Shown here: in pieces, positions 6,053 to 14,808 of the stretch
How the letters are laid out: each line of letters starts with the position of its first letter
How positions within the stretch are numbered: position 1 is the stretch's first letter
IMG/VR virus record: IMGVR_UViG_3300028591_000070
Span: 32,001 to 96,000 of that record
Reading direction: 5' to 3' (one strand)
Source: a virus
Taxonomy: Duplodnaviria > Caudoviricetes
Length of the DNA: 64,000 bases
Notes under the pieces: generated by a model
What the model was told of the DNA's origin: nothing
Database searches by the model: none
The model's input: the letters and a program-made list of their open reading frames with translations, nothing else
Position numbers and translations under genes: made by a program

Positions 6053-7702
6053 TTACATCAACTCTCCAAAAACACCTCTACCTGGATCAATAACTTCATC
6101 CAAAGGTTCAATGCTTAAGTTTTTAACATCTGAAATAATCGCATCTGCAACTGAAACAAACTGAGTTGTCATATTAGTTGCGTATAAAACTGCATTCTTT
6201 ACGATATTATATGGATCTACAATTCCCTGTTCAATTAAGTTTTCAACCTTACCAGTTCTAGCATTAAATCCAAAGTTTTTATCCTCATGAAGTTCAATAG
6301 CAACCTTTTCGTAAGAGCAGCTTGCAGAGTGTACTAAAATTTTGAGTGGCATTTTAATAGCTTGCATAAGAGCATCATATACAACTTTTTTATCTGAAGT
6401 AGTGTTTTCCAAAAGTTTAGAATATTCATCACCTTCAGCGATTCTATAAAGTGTTGTTCCACCTCCTACTACAAATCCACCATTCAAAGCGTTTCGTACA
6501 GCATTTAAGGCATCATCAACTCTATCTTTACGTTCAGATAATTCCTGGTTTGAGAGAGCTCCAACATAAATAGTTGCAATACCACCTTCAAGTTTAGCAA
6601 TACGAGACTTGATATTTGTGATTTCATCTGAAGAAAGAGCATGAGTTGGATCTTGATGGTCGATCAAACCTTGTAAAGTATCAACGTAATCTTTCTTTCT
6701 ATTCTTATCAGTTGAAGGTTCTGTTACAACTACACTATTTTTTGTAGCAATAATTGATTCGGCATGTCCACATTTATCATAAGACATTTCTTCAAGCTGA
6801 ATTTTTTCACCAATAACTTCTGTATTAAAGATTACTGCTAAATCTTCATTTTCTCTTTGAATAGACTCTCTTGAATAGCCTGGAGTTCTAATAAATACAT
6901 TGTTATCTTTGGCTGCGGTATTTGTGTAAAAAGCCGCAACCTCATCTGAATAATCTGGTGCAATAACAAGAAGATTATGTCCATGCATCAATTGAATAAA
7001 CATTTTAAAATGTTCCAAGTCTTCAACTGGATCTCTAAAAATTGCAACATAAACATCTTCTAAAATACACTGGTCATTTGCAGAATTTACACATTTAGAT
7101 GAGATATAGCCTTTTCCGATTTCACATCCTTTTGAAAGGACAAGCGAACTTTCTCCATAGCGTGACTGCGAGTCTGCATAAGATACAAGACCTTTATCTC
7201 CAATTGAAGTGAAAGCTTGTGTAATAAGATTTGCCATTTCCTCATCACCATTTGCAGAAATAAAAGCTATATCATGAATCTGTTTTTCATCATCAATATC
7301 ACATTTGAAATTTGATAAAAGATTAAAAATAAAATCTCTTATTTCAGTAATACAAGTTCTAATGAGATTTATATCAAATCCTTGGTCAATAAGTCCATTC
7401 ATTGCCTTACACATAGCATATGTCAAAATAGCTGTAGTTGAAGAACCATCACCATTATGATAATTTGCTTTATCAGAAGCTTCTGTTACAAACTTAACAC
7501 CCATATCTTTAAGTTCATCACTTAATTTAATTTTCTTAAGAGCAGTAACACCATCCTTTGAAAGGATTGTATTTGTTCCATTATTATATGCGAATACTTT
7601 TCCTCTAGGACCGAAAGTGTCAATAACAACACCTACTGCAATTCGCATTCCCTCAAGCATTGCTCTACGGGCGTCAAACGATTTTACAACAATATTTCCC
7701 AT
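6053..7702 (-). CDS. groEL: phage GroEL-like chaperonin
   Basis: TFGPRG, SKDGVT, GDGSSTT, RIAKLEGG, ERKDRVDDALNA, GGGTTL, GIVDP. Confidence 0.93.
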   Translation of the reverse strand: MGNIVVKSFDARRAMLEGMRIAVGVVIDTFGPRGKVFAYNNGTNTILSKDGVTALKKIKLSDELKDMGVKFVTEASDKANYHNGDGSSTTAILTYAMCKAMNGLIDQGFDINLIRTCITEIRDFIFNLLSNFKCDIDDEKQIHDIAFISANGDEEMANLITQAFTSIGDKGLVSYADSQSRYGESSLVLSKGCEIGKGYISSKCVNSANDQCILEDVYVAIFRDPVEDLEHFKMFIQLMHGHNLLVIAPDYSDEVAAFYTNTAAKDNNVFIRTPGYSRESIQRENEDLAVIFNTEVIGEKIQLEEMSYDKCGHAESIIATKNSVVVTEPSTDKNRKKDYVDTLQGLIDHQDPTHALSSDEITNIKSRIAKLEGGIATIYVGALSNQELSERKDRVDDALNAVRNALNGGFVVGGGTTLYRIAEGDEYSKLLENTTSDKKVVYDALMQAIKMPLKILVHSASCSYEKVAIELHEDKNFGFNARTGKVENLIEQGIVDPYNIVKNAVLYATNMTTQFVSVADAIISDVKNLSIEPLDEVIDPGRGVFGELM

Positions 7703-7722
7703 AATAAATAATATTAACCTTA

Positions 7723-7758
7723 AACAAAAAGGAGCCGCTTTCGCGACTCCTTTGTTTT
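7723..7758 (-). terminator. rho-independent terminator
   Basis: aaaggag-c-cgc..gcg-a-ctccttt stem with T tract on the minus strand. Confidence 0.7.
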
Positions 7759-7775
7759 AGTTTATCACCTTCTTT

Positions 7776-8597
7776 TTATTTATTTTCCTCAGTTGTTTTT
7801 TCTTCTTTTTTAGAAGATTTCTTTTCTGCTTTTTTAGCTGGCTTTTTGACAGCAGACTTTTTAGCAGGTTTTTTCGCAACTGTTGAATTACCTTCCATAA
7901 TAGCCTTAATTTCTTCGTTGATTTCAGCTTGATGCTTTTCAGCGAGAGCAGCAACTAAAGCTTGTTTCTTGTGGTCTTCTTCTCTTGCTTTTAGAATTCT
8001 TTCATGAGCTTCTTTTGCAGTAAACCAGAAATCTTTACCTTCAATCATGGCATCAATTTCTTCATCAGTCATAAATCCAGCATAAATTTCTCTAGCTGTT
8101 TCTTCAAACCATTTCTGATCAAACTTCAAACGAGCAGTAATTTCATGCCATTTTCCATAGAACATAGCTGACATAGAATGTACCATTACACATGAATGAG
8201 GAGCAAAATCAAAGTTATCTCCTGCCATCATGATTGTCGAAGCTGCTGAACAACAGAATCCATCAATATGCATATTGATAGTTGCAGGACAGTCACACAA
8301 AGCATCGAAAATGTGATATCCGGCATACATAGCTCCACCAAAACAATTGATATGAATATCAACAGTATCAGTTGGGTGGCATTCACTTAAAGCTCTCAAA
8401 AAGTCGATATAATCTTCAATATCTTCAATCTCATTGATTAAATAATAATCTATGTTTTTTGAGCCATCAGGTTGGCTTGTAATTTTCAAAAGTGGGTCAT
8501 CATCATAAGGGTCATCATACATAAAAGGTGCTTTTGCCTTATTAGATGGTGTCTTAAACTTAGTTGTTTCCATCATTGTCTCCATATTTTTAAACAT
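7776..8597 (-). CDS. clpP: ClpP-like (S14) protease with Lys/Ala-rich tail
   Basis: HINCFGG, DGFCCSAAS (catalytic Ser), MVHS (His), DFWFTAKEA; C-terminal KKPAKK repeats. Confidence 0.85.
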   Translation of the reverse strand: MFKNMETMMETTKFKTPSNKAKAPFMYDDPYDDDPLLKITSQPDGSKNIDYYLINEIEDIEDYIDFLRALSECHPTDTVDIHINCFGGAMYAGYHIFDALCDCPATINMHIDGFCCSAASTIMMAGDNFDFAPHSCVMVHSMSAMFYGKWHEITARLKFDQKWFEETAREIYAGFMTDEEIDAMIEGKDFWFTAKEAHERILKAREEDHKKQALVAALAEKHQAEINEEIKAIMEGNSTVAKKPAKKSAVKKPAKKAEKKSSKKEEKTTEENK

Positions 8598-9862: not shown

Positions 9863-10999
9863 TTAATTAGTAATCCGATGGCGTCCTGCTGTTTGAATTT
9901 TATGTCTTCCAGATGTTTTAGCTTTAAGGTCGATTAAACCCTTTAATTCATCAATGCTATCACTTACTCTGTCCATCCAACCCATAGCAATCATGTCTTT
10001 TACAGTTTTAATTGATGCATCTTTTCCTTGTAAAATATCATTTATATCTTTAATTCCAGGTCTGCAAGGTGGAACTAAAAATGAGACTTTGTCTCTTAAT
10101 TTTTCCATAAGAAAAAGACAAGCTTTAAGTCCTGGGCTATCATTATCAACTACATAGATGACTTGTGGAAACTTATTTAATAAATAAATCTGTCTTTCTG
10201 TTGGTGTACAATGAAAAAGACAACTTGAATTTTTAAATTCAGGTTCTGTTCTTAAGCTAAACATGTCCATCAAACCTTCAGTGATATATAAAGGTTTTGA
10301 GGTGTCCAATTTATTATAATCATAAATTGTATTTATGGATGAATGGCCTGGATATAAAACTTTTTTATATTTCTTTTCATCATATTCTATGCCATGCTCT
10401 TGATGCCATTTTATCCAAGCTTCTTTTCCTTGAGTATCACGAGCTTCAAATGAGATAAGTTTACTATTTTCAAAAATAGGAATTACAACACACTTATTAA
10501 AGTAATTCCATTCTTTTTTATTTAATGGGTCTGATTTTTGTTTTGTTATAAAAAAGTCACCATATTTAATGTTATTCTTTTCACAAAAATCTAAAGTAAA
10601 TCCACGAGACTGGGCCCATTTAACACCATTTGGATTATTCTTAATAGATGTTAAATTACCTTCAAATGTAAAGTCGATTTCAGGAGTTTTAGAGAAGTCT
10701 ATAGATACTGGAGCTTTTGAAACATAGGTGCGTTTAACACCTATGTTCAAGTCTTTATAGATAGAAGTGCCAAATCTTTCGTAATAGACAGTAGTAAGTG
10801 CATGATTATACCCACAAGCATAACATTTACACCAACCTTTCTCAAGATTTATATTCATAGATGGCGAATGATCATCATGGTCTGGGCTAAGGCATCTAAT
10901 ATTAAATTTATTTTTATTGGCTGGAATTTTTACTCCAAGTCTATTTAATATTTCTTTACTTATTTCTGTTTTATCTTCTGAAAAGTCATTTAAGCGCAT
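9863..10999 (-). CDS. DNA primase (DnaG/gp61-like)
   Basis: CHC2 Zn finger CLSPDH..CYACG; TOPRIM ITEGLMD and VDNDSPG. Confidence 0.9.
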   Translation of the reverse strand: MRLNDFSEDKTEISKEILNRLGVKIPANKNKFNIRCLSPDHDDHSPSMNINLEKGWCKCYACGYNHALTTVYYERFGTSIYKDLNIGVKRTYVSKAPVSIDFSKTPEIDFTFEGNLTSIKNNPNGVKWAQSRGFTLDFCEKNNIKYGDFFITKQKSDPLNKKEWNYFNKCVVIPIFENSKLISFEARDTQGKEAWIKWHQEHGIEYDEKKYKKVLYPGHSSINTIYDYNKLDTSKPLYITEGLMDMFSLRTEPEFKNSSCLFHCTPTERQIYLLNKFPQVIYVVDNDSPGLKACLFLMEKLRDKVSFLVPPCRPGIKDINDILQGKDASIKTVKDMIAMGWMDRVSDSIDELKGLIDLKAKTSGRHKIQTAGRHRITN

Positions 11000-11419
11000 T
11001 TATTTACCTACAAAAACATCATCTTCTTTAAAGTCTTTTCCTTTGATTTCCATATCTTGGCCATTTCTTTTAATTTTAATAGTCTGATCTTCACCAAAAG
11101 AAAACTTTTCTCCAGTATCATTATCAACAATATCAATTACCATTTTTCCAGTTGGCTTGATAAAAACATTTGTTGCTGTTACTGAGTGGGCGTCATTATT
11201 TCCCATTTTCATATTAGGCCAATCAATATCTTTTAATTCTACACCTGAAGAGCGTAGAGTCATTGCTTCGTCCTGATAAATATCATATGAAACTTTGTCA
11301 ATACCATCAGGATTTAATCCTTCATCTGCCATCGCGAGACACATTTGGAGGCTTCGGAAGTCTGCATCAACGAGCAAATAATCTGAATATTTTTCTTGTT
11401 TTTTAATTTTTAATGCCAT
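11000..11419 (-). CDS. family A DNA polymerase fragment (motif A) with C-terminal intein/Hint-like segment
   Basis: LLVDADFRSLQMCLA (motif A) and DAHSVTATNVF; only 139 aa from the probable start MALKIKK. Confidence 0.7.
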   Translation of the reverse strand: MALKIKKQEKYSDYLLVDADFRSLQMCLAMADEGLNPDGIDKVSYDIYQDEAMTLRSSGVELKDIDWPNMKMGNNDAHSVTATNVFIKPTGKMVIDIVDNDTGEKFSFGEDQTIKIKRNGQDMEIKGKDFKEDDVFVGK

Positions 11420-11475
11420 AATTATAAAAATATTAACTGAAATACTAATTAAATTTATATAAAGGAGAAAATTTA

Positions 11476-13950: not shown

Positions 13951-14808
13951 ATGGCTATTATTTTCGAAAAAACAAAATATGATGTTTCTGGTTTAAATCT
14001 TCCAGATGTTTGTCCAGTTTGTGGTGGTGACATTCTTGTTAAAGATAATGGCCAGGTGCGATGTGCTAATCCTAAATGTGCAGGAGTTGCTCATCACTTA
14101 AATATGTATTTCTTTAATCAGCTTGAAATCAAAGGTGCTGGAGATGCTTTTATTGCGAATGCTTCTAAAGAATGGCGCTCTGTATCAGATATTCTTTATG
14201 CTTGGAAATCACGAAATCGTTCAGATAAATTCTGTGAGTTTGCAGGTGGTGTGAATGGCGATAAAGTTCTCAAAGAAATGGATAATAAACTTAAAAAGCC
14301 AACCTCAATGAGTGCTTTCCTCAATCTTTTTGATTTTGATGGATTTGGTTTTAAGAAAATTCAGCTTCTTGAAGATACAAAAGCTTTTGAAAATGCTTAT
14401 AATGGTGATTTTGACCTTCTTTTTGAAAAGCCAATTACAGACGAAATTAAAGGTTTAAGTCAGGACTCACTTAATGAGTTTTATGAACAGGTTCTCGACC
14501 ATACTCAAGATATTCTTGAAAGCTATGCTCTTTTGAAAGACTATATTAAAAAAGAACAGAAAGTTGAAGGTGGTAAATTCGCTGGTATGAACTTCTGCTT
14601 TACAGGCGCTTGTGAATGTGGTTGGAAACGTAAGGATTGTGAAGCAAAAGTTGCTGAATTAGGTGGTAAAGTTACTGCTGTAAATAAAGATTTGACATAT
14701 CTCGTAACAGATGATGTCGACTCGGGTTCAGCTAAAGCTAAGAAAGCTAAAGAACTTGGAAGTAAAGTTATTACCTCATTCGAGTTCAAGAAGATGTGTG
14801 AGGAATAA
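13951..14808 (+). CDS. NAD-dependent DNA ligase C-terminal part only (Zn finger, HhH, BRCT)
   Basis: CPVCGG..VRCANPKC, LEIKGAG, FDGFG, FCFTG..GGKV..VNKDLTYLV..GSAKAKKAKELG; no KxDG adenylation domain. Confidence 0.85.
   Translation: MAIIFEKTKYDVSGLNLPDVCPVCGGDILVKDNGQVRCANPKCAGVAHHLNMYFFNQLEIKGAGDAFIANASKEWRSVSDILYAWKSRNRSDKFCEFAGGVNGDKVLKEMDNKLKKPTSMSAFLNLFDFDGFGFKKIQLLEDTKAFENAYNGDFDLLFEKPITDEIKGLSQDSLNEFYEQVLDHTQDILESYALLKDYIKKEQKVEGGKFAGMNFCFTGACECGWKRKDCEAKVAELGGKVTAVNKDLTYLVTDDVDSGSAKAKKAKELGSKVITSFEFKKMCEE

Follow-up and report, generated by a model that had tools for sequence, protein, structure and literature searches.

A phage family A DNA polymerase is encoded as three scattered genes, the middle one ending in the remnant of a split-intein N-half

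What does a phage gain from a gene of 139 codons that carries one catalytic motif of a family A DNA polymerase (PolA), little else of that enzyme, and a tail that looks like part of an intein? The gene lies in a 64,000-nt stretch of DNA (the window), which corresponds to positions 32001-96000 of a virus record of 385,934 bp, complete by CheckV and with a G+C content of 32%. We found that it encodes the middle third of the only DNA polymerase detectable in this phage, which is distributed over three scattered genes. We think it probable that the 139-aa protein (piece 2, P0001) is the middle subunit of a three-gene family A polymerase, in which tails and heads left over from dead inteins serve as two non-covalent clasps. 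The features discussed below are as follows, with positions in the window unless marked as genome positions.

11000-11419, minus strand: piece 2 gene (P0001, 139 aa, MALKIKKQ...DDVFVGK), assigned from its translation, homologues and fused relatives
11384..11419, minus strand: head of piece 2 (residues 1-12, MALKIKKQEKYS), basic, similar to the opening strand of an intein C-half and predicted to pair with the tail of piece 1
11144..11383, minus strand: polymerase core segment, residues 13-92, with the motif A strand/helix and the DAHSVTA..F helix
11003..11143, minus strand: tail of piece 2, residues 93-139, the truncated, catalytically dead remnant of a split-intein N-half
11002-11000, minus strand: stop codon (TAA) of piece 2
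11430..11437, minus strand: gene-start motif GTTAATAT, 10 nt upstream of the piece 2 ATG
9863..10999, minus strand: DnaG-type primase gene, its ATG at 10999 immediately after the piece 2 stop
genome 195829-197739, minus strand: piece 1, 636 aa, with the 3'-5' exonuclease (PF01612) and PF00476 positions 7-149, up to just before motif A
genome 218232-219245, minus strand: piece 3, 337 aa, with PF00476 positions 199-375, including motifs B and C

The program-made list of open reading frames opened the same frame upstream, at TTG 11491 (163 aa). The true start is ATG 11419, because relatives begin with M(A/S/G)LKI at this point, GTTAATAT stands 10 nt upstream, and the primase ATG abuts the stop. 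GTTAATAT is a genuine gene-start signal in this phage genome. The window holds 15 copies compared with 5.5 expected, a number that none of 100 shuffles reached, and genome-wide 54 of the 88 copies are followed within 30 nt, mostly at 6-10 nt, by the ATG of an ORF of at least 60 aa, versus 9.6% for 30 scrambled 8-mers. A first-pass annotation, made from the window alone, had described a gene with its own start motif and a stop abutting the primase start, and both details hold (motif at 11430-11437, TAA at 11002-11000, ATG at 10999).

Within piece 2, motif A with its catalytic Asp (D-Y/F-S-x-x-E in Klenow and T7) is present as LLVDADFRSLQ at residues 15-25, DAHSVTATNVF occupies residues 76-86, and a beta-rich tail spans residues 95-139; the core also carries a 21-residue insertion that is absent from relatives of 116-125 aa. 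That only motif A and DAHSVTA..F represent PolA here, as the first-pass annotation had it, agrees with the translation and with the profile positions covered (~150-199). Searched alone, piece 2 matched no Pfam or PHROG family, and neither phmmer with the protein nor its family profile found anything meaningful among PDB sequences. The score threshold of PF00476 was not reached by piece 2 alone; since it is a slice of 50 of the 381 positions of that family, membership holds for the three pieces jointly and not for piece 2 by itself. Its assignment to PolA is made through comparison with fused relatives, described below. Piece 2 has 24 stand-alone homologues (76-244 aa, 44-99% identity), some of them on contigs of 369-389 kb, and across these, conservation in the tail is close to that in the catalytic part; the tail residues I95, F108, Q112, I114, I125, G127 and F130 are invariant. 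Given these homologues and the conservation of the tail, piece 2 is not a chance reading frame.

The first-pass annotation had suggested looking through the full genome for the missing PolA parts, and these were found: the exonuclease in piece 1 and motifs B and C in piece 3. The two pieces leave a gap at PF00476 positions 150-199, which piece 2 fills. In the 386-kb genome, piece 2 lies 153 kb from piece 1 and ~175-176 kb from piece 3, and pieces 1 and 3 are 22 kb apart. Piece 3 begins with motif B (RxxxKxxNFxxxF), which aligns with residues 428-455 of the Klenow chain; its motif C is HDS instead of HDE. Throughout the clade, a Gln stands at the position of the motif A Glu, presumably Klenow E710, a correspondence mapped by eye against the Klenow sequence. 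The active site is thus unusual at two points (Gln for Klenow E710 in motif A; HDS in motif C), and catalytic activity is not to be assumed. A family B polymerase and a Pol III alpha were looked for in the phage genome, and neither was found. Joining of the pieces by ribosomal frameshifting or RNA splicing was considered and dropped, with the genes 22-176 kb apart and each having its own start motif.

Relatives of the polymerase place the same segments in other combinations. In relatives of ~690 aa, a segment like piece 2 follows the exonuclease and the N-terminal polymerase part, and in one of these fused proteins (P0028) PF00476 positions 2-199 run in a single stretch through that segment. 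In P0026 and P0027 (465-469 aa), the segment stands instead in front of the part with motifs B and C, giving a 1|2+3 arrangement. In a 1+2|3 relative, the 1+2 gene and the piece 3 gene are adjacent with an overlap of 8 nt, and a third virus record likewise has 1+2 fused with piece 3 adjacent. The three-piece set recurs in a second complete phage genome (301 kb, direct terminal repeats), where piece 1 is 122 kb from pieces 2 and 3.

What joins the parts in the fused relatives is an in-frame insertion in which a short linker connects the tail of one piece to the head of the piece that follows. This module occurs at two sites, just before motif A (site 1, module 1) and ~25 residues before motif B (site 2, module 2); P0026, P0027 and P0076 have module 2 in frame, P0084 and P0050 have module 1, and the fully fused P0181 has both. 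Cut forms are broken at an identical point within the module. To see how frequent these forms are, 147 representative relatives of piece 1 were classed by HMMs for each part, with labels assigned by simple rules:

60/147: whole
2/147: whole, module kept
41/147: cut before motif B (site 2)
29/147: cut before motif A (site 1)
3/147: cut inside motif B, by a genuine split intein
12/147: unclassified

All cut forms among the 147 relatives end right after the module. In a FastTree tree, which was midpoint-rooted and, having no reliable root, gives no direction of change, the cut forms cluster, with 9-13 state changes for the cut at motif A and 16-20 for the cut at motif B; two whole proteins without modules (P0053, P0065) are placed among the cut forms. 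Mobile inteins and their endonucleases would leave such a patchy pattern, to which truncated gene calls could also contribute in part. A tblastn search with pieces 2 and 3 against 50,697 GenBank phage records gave no match, and this polymerase clade is known from metagenomes only.

Where do the tails and heads come from? Piece 1 runs ~57 residues past its polymerase sequence, and this extension resembles the tail of piece 2. The family profiles of the two tails are homologous (hhalign 96.5%, E 7.7e-10). A phmmer search with either tail against all ORFs of the genome returned only the tail itself, because the two are too diverged for a single-sequence search. Against PDB sequences, the profile of the piece 1 tail matched the NrdJ-1 split intein at E 0.0034 and gp41-1 at E 0.078. 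The joint profile of both tails matched the NrdJ-1 intein at E 1.9e-4 (177,635 sequences), followed by gp41-1, Aes123 PolB1, Pab PolC and TFIIB at E 0.15-0.58, and all of its intein alignments cover the stretch from block B to the split site. The profile of the piece 2 tail alone gave chance matches in the PDB search; the intein signal came with the piece 1 and joint profiles.

A second line of sequence evidence comes from the polymerase family itself. Three relatives (P0091, P0114, P0143) are N-terminal PolA pieces that end in intein N-halves of 103-105 aa, inserted right after the motif B lysine. These N-halves start with Cys-Phe, contain TPEH or SPEH, and match PF14890 (E 1e-5 to 1.5e-3) and Hint_2. 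The gene after one such piece starts with a 45-residue intein C-half (P0241), which ends in ..VSGQ before SFNFG; in another of these relatives, the piece ending in the N-half is followed by an ORF with NUMOD3, a domain typical of homing endonucleases. Judging by these residues, the split inteins of the related polymerases are apparently active. Residues 92-139 of piece 2 correspond to residues 58-104 of the real 105-aa N-halves (hhalign 95.6%, E 1.1e-8), and its last residue aligns to position 104 of 105. The alignment to NrdJ-1 similarly stops at residue 105 of NrdJ-1, whose N-half is 105 aa long. In P0103, the same stretch stands directly ahead of a LAGLIDADG domain. The break at the end of piece 2 thus falls on the canonical split site, where endonucleases insert.

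The heads point the same way. The first-pass annotation had seen in MALKIKKQ a weak likeness to the beginning of a C-half, and this likeness holds when the head is aligned with the real C-half of a related polymerase. The head of piece 2 and those of piece 3 and its relatives (MSYTITKR/MYKITKR) align to the first strand of real C-halves (..GIKKITRR), and in an alignment of the piece 2 head, the start of the P0241 C-half (MSITVGIKKITRR) and the piece 3 heads, K and I are invariant. The complementary Hint-like termini that the first-pass annotation had proposed to search for are thus present: tail 1 is the same module as tail 2, and heads 2 and 3 are C-half-like. Tail 1 carries a net charge of -9 and its partner, head 2, one of +3; in the second pair the values are -4 (tail 2) and +4 (head 3). 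In NrdJ-1, the interface strands of the two halves are oppositely charged, the N-half negative and the C-half positive (Dassa et al., PMC2677866), and the tails and heads described here have the same polarity. What has been retained, the C-terminal part of an N-half and the opening strand of a C-half, matches the portion through which split-intein halves pair with each other.

The history that we consider most likely is as follows. An intein would have inserted next to a catalytic motif and been split by a homing endonuclease, after which its halves would have become uncoupled in the genome. The splicing parts would then have been lost and the sheet between the halves kept, a step that we add to the gene-breaking model of Dassa et al. 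Each break lies within the remains of a split intein: the piece upstream of it closes with the final 45-50 residues of an N-half, and the piece downstream opens with ~10 residues that match the first strand of a C-half. Acidic tail and basic head most likely pair to rebuild the central beta-sheet by which the halves of a split intein are held together, and the two resulting clasps would help the three chains assemble, non-covalently, into one polymerase fold. We infer both that the clasps bind and that the assembled enzyme acts as the phage replicase. The module is not solely a docking device, because fused relatives keep it in frame.

Multi-chain modeling, one of the checks that had been proposed for this locus, placed the three pieces together. 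Residues 330-636 of piece 1, piece 2 and piece 3 were modeled as three chains, each with its own alignment. The ipSAE for piece 2 was 0.85 (0.84-0.87 in three runs) compared with 0.01 for the best of 3 controls, a score that must owe part of its height to the likeness with solved single-chain PolA structures. The ipSAE mark was calibrated on solved complexes, 58 of 80 of which reach it, and on mismatched pairs, 2 of 110 of which do. Contact agreement between runs was at least 78% and the pLDDT of the partners at least 71. Both tail/head pairs are in contact in the model; the interface at clasp 2 involves piece 2 residues 107-113, 130-136 and 139 and piece 3 residues 1-24, and piece 2 residues 1-45 touch piece 1 at 574-586, 593-594, 611-617, 626 and 630. 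The contacts with the lowest error are those of the palm core, motif A strand against motif C hairpin, and not those of the clasps: piece 2 residues 13-18 pair with piece 3 residues 213-217 and 248-251, beside motif C, at an expected error of only 0.3-0.6 A. Most of the affinity may thus come from the fold of the polymerase itself. Overall, the three-chain model supports binding of the pieces. The first-pass idea of splicing-dead Hint pieces as docking tags is supported as far as anatomy and ancestry are concerned; their function as tags is putative.

These palm contacts also favor the main rival reading, in which the intein remnants are neutral relics and the chains join through ordinary interior interfaces of PolA (palm sheet, fingers helices). 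It gains further from the retention of the module in fused relatives, which have no need for docking, and from the NAD ligase of this phage, which is also split, at a plain domain border and with no tail/head module. Against neutral relics stand the cut forms, all of which end directly behind the module (29 cut at site 1 and 41 at site 2, of 147), and a tail conserved about as well as the catalytic part over 44-99% identity. Moreover, the stretch that was kept is the part that forms the sheet between the halves in split inteins, tails and heads are oppositely charged, and both pairs touch in the model. We therefore regard neutral relics as unlikely, if still the most serious competitor of the clasps.

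Far less probable is that the beta-rich module is not an intein at all but a clade-specific insertion domain with a job of its own, such as binding DNA or an accessory factor, and that the genes simply broke in loops. The module does lie in frame in fused relatives, and no Hint family of Pfam matched the module pieces even with E values of up to 10 admitted. A six-frame search of the phage genome with PF14890 gave no match. A feature search of the ESM Atlas with the module reached 0.76-0.78 at best, under the useful range. The structural evidence likewise comes with modest Z scores in absolute terms (7.0 for module 2; 4.9), because the module is small. It lies in the specificity of the match lists, which consist mostly or only of Hint folds. 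In an AlphaFold model of module 2 in P0026 (beta-core pLDDT 80-88), the top 17 rows of a comparison with 48,161 chains are all inteins or Hedgehog Hint domains; the best match is the PolII mini-intein, whose residues 73-139 align with model residues 21-95 (rmsd 2.7 A over 65 residues, Z 7.0), and the best Foldseek match is a split intein (probability 0.94, E 0.19). For module 1, modeled in P0084 (core pLDDT 95-97), all 26 chains with Z of at least 2, of the 48,161, are Hint folds, three of them superposing with an rmsd of 1.5-1.9 A over 41-43 residues. The head strand in this model has low confidence; short heads were partly misplaced in the alignments, which may explain this.

The sequence comparisons argue against an unrelated insertion domain more directly. 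To the database match with NrdJ-1 and the hhalign match with real N-halves from this family of polymerases, in which the alignment runs to an identical split point, can be added a search in the reverse direction: a profile built from the three real N-halves found, among 1,616 genome ORFs, the piece 2 ORF as its sole significant match (E 6.7e-4). A single module at two sites, both just before conserved motifs, is also how mobile inteins behave. Four independent lines of evidence, from structure, from PDB sequences, from real inteins of the family and from the reverse search, thus agree that the tail of piece 2 descends from the N-half of a split intein, in line with the Hint-fold similarity that had been suspected.

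Could the pieces still be joined covalently, by an unconventional form of trans-splicing? The idea draws on the related polymerases with apparently active split inteins nearby (Cys1, TPEH, and a C-half Gln followed by Ser). In piece 2, the equivalent of intein residues 1-57, including Cys1 and block A, is absent, and the polymerase sequence passes straight into the equivalent of residue 58; piece 1 similarly lacks the first 57 residues with the nucleophile. The block B TxxH, which is SPEH or TPEH in the real N-halves and TPDH in NrdJ-1, aligns to G109-E-D-Q112 (GxxQ) in piece 2 and to N-S-E-Y (NxxY) in piece 1. The first-pass annotation had called the tail similar to an intein N-region without the TxxH and the N-terminal Cys, and each of these points holds. 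Pieces 2 and 3 have ~10-13 C-half-like residues before the polymerase sequence begins, without blocks F and G, a terminal Asn or Gln, or a positioned +1 nucleophile (Cys/Ser/Thr), and the fused relatives hold the module as a permanent insertion. Because Cys1, block A, the Thr and His of block B, and blocks F and G are all gone, splicing by any known route is excluded, as judged from the sequences, and we give covalent joining next to no credence.

As little weight attaches to the view that the 139-aa ORF is a decaying, functionless polymerase fragment: it is small and matches no family by itself, but stand-alone homologues as distant as 44% identity are intact and keep invariant residues in both the catalytic part and the tail. 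The ORF also has its own start motif and is coupled to the primase, its partner pieces lack exactly its segment, a second complete genome has the same three-piece set, and no other DNA polymerase was found in the phage genome. The first-pass annotation had also judged that the gene does not look like decay, and the 24 homologues, invariant residues and complementary partners bear it out.

With the clasps as our preferred reading, a more general possibility arises. In phage replication genes whose split inteins no longer splice, the sheet between the halves, built from the final ~47 N-half residues and the opening strand of the C-half, could be a portable heterodimerization module that the phages have domesticated, and the two diverged copies (tail 1 with head 2, tail 2 with head 3) could be orthogonal clasps that set the order of assembly. 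On balance we lean toward this extension, with clearly less assurance than we place in the clasps themselves.

Fractured-gene split inteins are complete, with halves of 88-105 and 37-40 aa. Examples such as gp41-1, NrdJ-1 and IMPDH-1 resemble the present case in that phage-type replication genes are broken within an intein at the endonuclease-insertion site, the halves are oppositely charged, and the halves may reach separate loci (Dassa et al., 2009, PMC2677866). The likeness extends to the direct matches of the tail profile to NrdJ-1 and gp41-1 and to the NUMOD3 ORF at the locus of a relative. Those inteins splice, whereas here ~47 + 12 residues remain, the catalytic residues are gone, and the host protein stays in pieces. 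In the fractured-gene arrangement, a free-standing homing endonuclease gene lies between adjacent halves; in this genome the pieces are instead 153 and 22 kb apart. The split inteins of cyanobacterial DnaE and Nanoarchaeum equitans PolB (cited in PMC2677866) also connect distant genes, with intein halves joining an essential polymerase, but these are two-piece enzymes of families C and B that become one covalent chain, while the polymerase described here belongs to family A, comes in three pieces and has no splicing chemistry.

Other polymerases and other retained inteins offer partial parallels. In the jumbo phage PhiKZ, the replicative polymerase is a stable non-covalent complex of separately encoded parts, DNAP-N and DNAP-C; it is a family B enzyme of two parts, and its abstract and outline mention no intein-derived element (bioRxiv 2026, PMC13648687). 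In MEP401-type OM43 phages, PolA is also made from two genes, with no mechanism given; a small unknown ORF separates the adjacent halves and an intron is suspected, and a dead-intein module, a three-way split and scattering are not described (PMC10580990). The yeast HO endonuclease is likewise a non-splicing intein retained for another function (bioRxiv 10.1101/2020.01.20.913210), but there the endonuclease function is kept in a single chain, while here half a Hint fold is apparently kept as a protein-protein clasp. Split inteins, fractured genes, trans-spliced polymerases, the non-covalent two-piece PhiKZ polymerase and the split PolA of marine phages are thus already known (PMC2677866, PMC13648687, PMC10580990). 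Our literature searches on dead or degenerate split inteins and on PolA inteins returned nothing relevant, and in the literature searched no paper came to light that describes truncated remnants of split inteins serving as clasps without splicing.

If the clasps function as proposed, they would supply a mechanism for the frequent fragmentation of phage family A polymerase genes, which has been noted and left unexplained. They would also add a stage to the intein life cycle, following invasion, splitting by an endonuclease and uncoupling, in which splicing is lost and the binding core kept, so that the fracture of a gene by an intein could turn irreversible without loss of function. An essential replicase could then work as three non-covalent chains whose genes lie as much as 176 kb from one another. 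Split inteins would already have given rise, in nature, to minimal binding pairs that do not splice, and such pairs of ~47 + 12 residues would be candidate protein-assembly tags free of splicing chemistry.

Assembly from scattered genes raises the matter of their expression. Each of the three polymerase pieces has GTTAATAT 6-10 nt ahead of its ATG, which is consistent with similar, independent expression of the three. On one side, piece 2 is neighbored by a divergent 301-aa ORF that matched no Pfam or PHROG family. On the other lies the primase gene, identified by Toprim_2, a DnaG zinc ribbon and PHROG 47 (E 5e-33), which has no GTTAATAT of its own; because of this and of its ATG directly following the stop of piece 2, the primase is probably co-transcribed and translationally coupled with the middle piece of the polymerase.

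Split inteins were also found in relatives of this family A DNA polymerase (PolA), at two loci outside this genome (L018:6001-9225 and L017:2392-5423), where the intein lies directly after the motif B lysine. Judged by its sequence, this intein is apparently active: its N-half (103-105 aa) has Cys1 and a TPEH motif, and its C-half (45 aa) has a terminal Gln and then Ser. In one of the loci, the N-piece is followed by a NUMOD3 ORF. Another PolA relative, P0103, carries a contiguous intein with a LAGLIDADG domain inside the exonuclease domain (residues about 290-634), and inteins therefore occupy several sites across this PolA family. In the phage studied here, the second-best match of the profile built from real intein N-halves of PolA relatives (E 0.098) is a 462-aa ORF outside the window (genome 340127-341515, minus strand); this phage may also have a live split intein of its own.

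The polymerase is not the only divided replication enzyme in this genome. NAD-dependent DNA ligase is encoded by two distant genes, about 80 kb apart:

Genome 125966-127072 (L006:1273-2379), minus strand: ligase adenylation-domain piece, 368 aa, assigned by domain match
Window 13951-14808, plus strand: ligase Zn-finger/HhH/BRCT piece, 285 aa

The tail of the 368-aa piece has an OB-like appearance by eye. The break falls at a plain domain border, and no intein-derived module of the kind seen between the polymerase pieces was detected there.

The active-site motifs of this polymerase clade are themselves unusual. Motif A reads DFRSLQ (residues 20-25 of piece 2, the 139-aa middle piece; window about 11345-11362), with the Gln at what we take to be the position of Klenow E710, as mapped by eye onto the Klenow sequence. 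Motif C is an invariant HDS rather than HDE (residues 208-210 of piece 3, outside the window). These motifs may indicate altered metal or substrate handling. Piece 2 and its closest relatives also share an insertion after motif A and before the DxH helix; the homologues of 116-125 aa do not have this insertion:

Window about 11204-11272, piece 2 residues about 50-72: 21-residue insertion

Downstream of the piece 2 and primase genes, on the same strand, window 6053-8597 (minus strand) encodes a 549-aa chaperonin of the GroEL type as well as a 273-aa protease resembling ClpP; a 413-aa ORF between these two genes and the primase gene had no family match.

The gene-start motif GTTAATAT is present in 88 copies genome-wide, including window 11430-11437 and 14 other sites in the window. 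An ATG opening an ORF follows within 30 nt in 61% of the 88 copies, mostly at a spacing of 6-10 nt. This proximity, together with the frequent absence of a visible Shine-Dalgarno sequence at these gene starts, suggests that GTTAATAT is a phage-specific promoter giving very short leaders.
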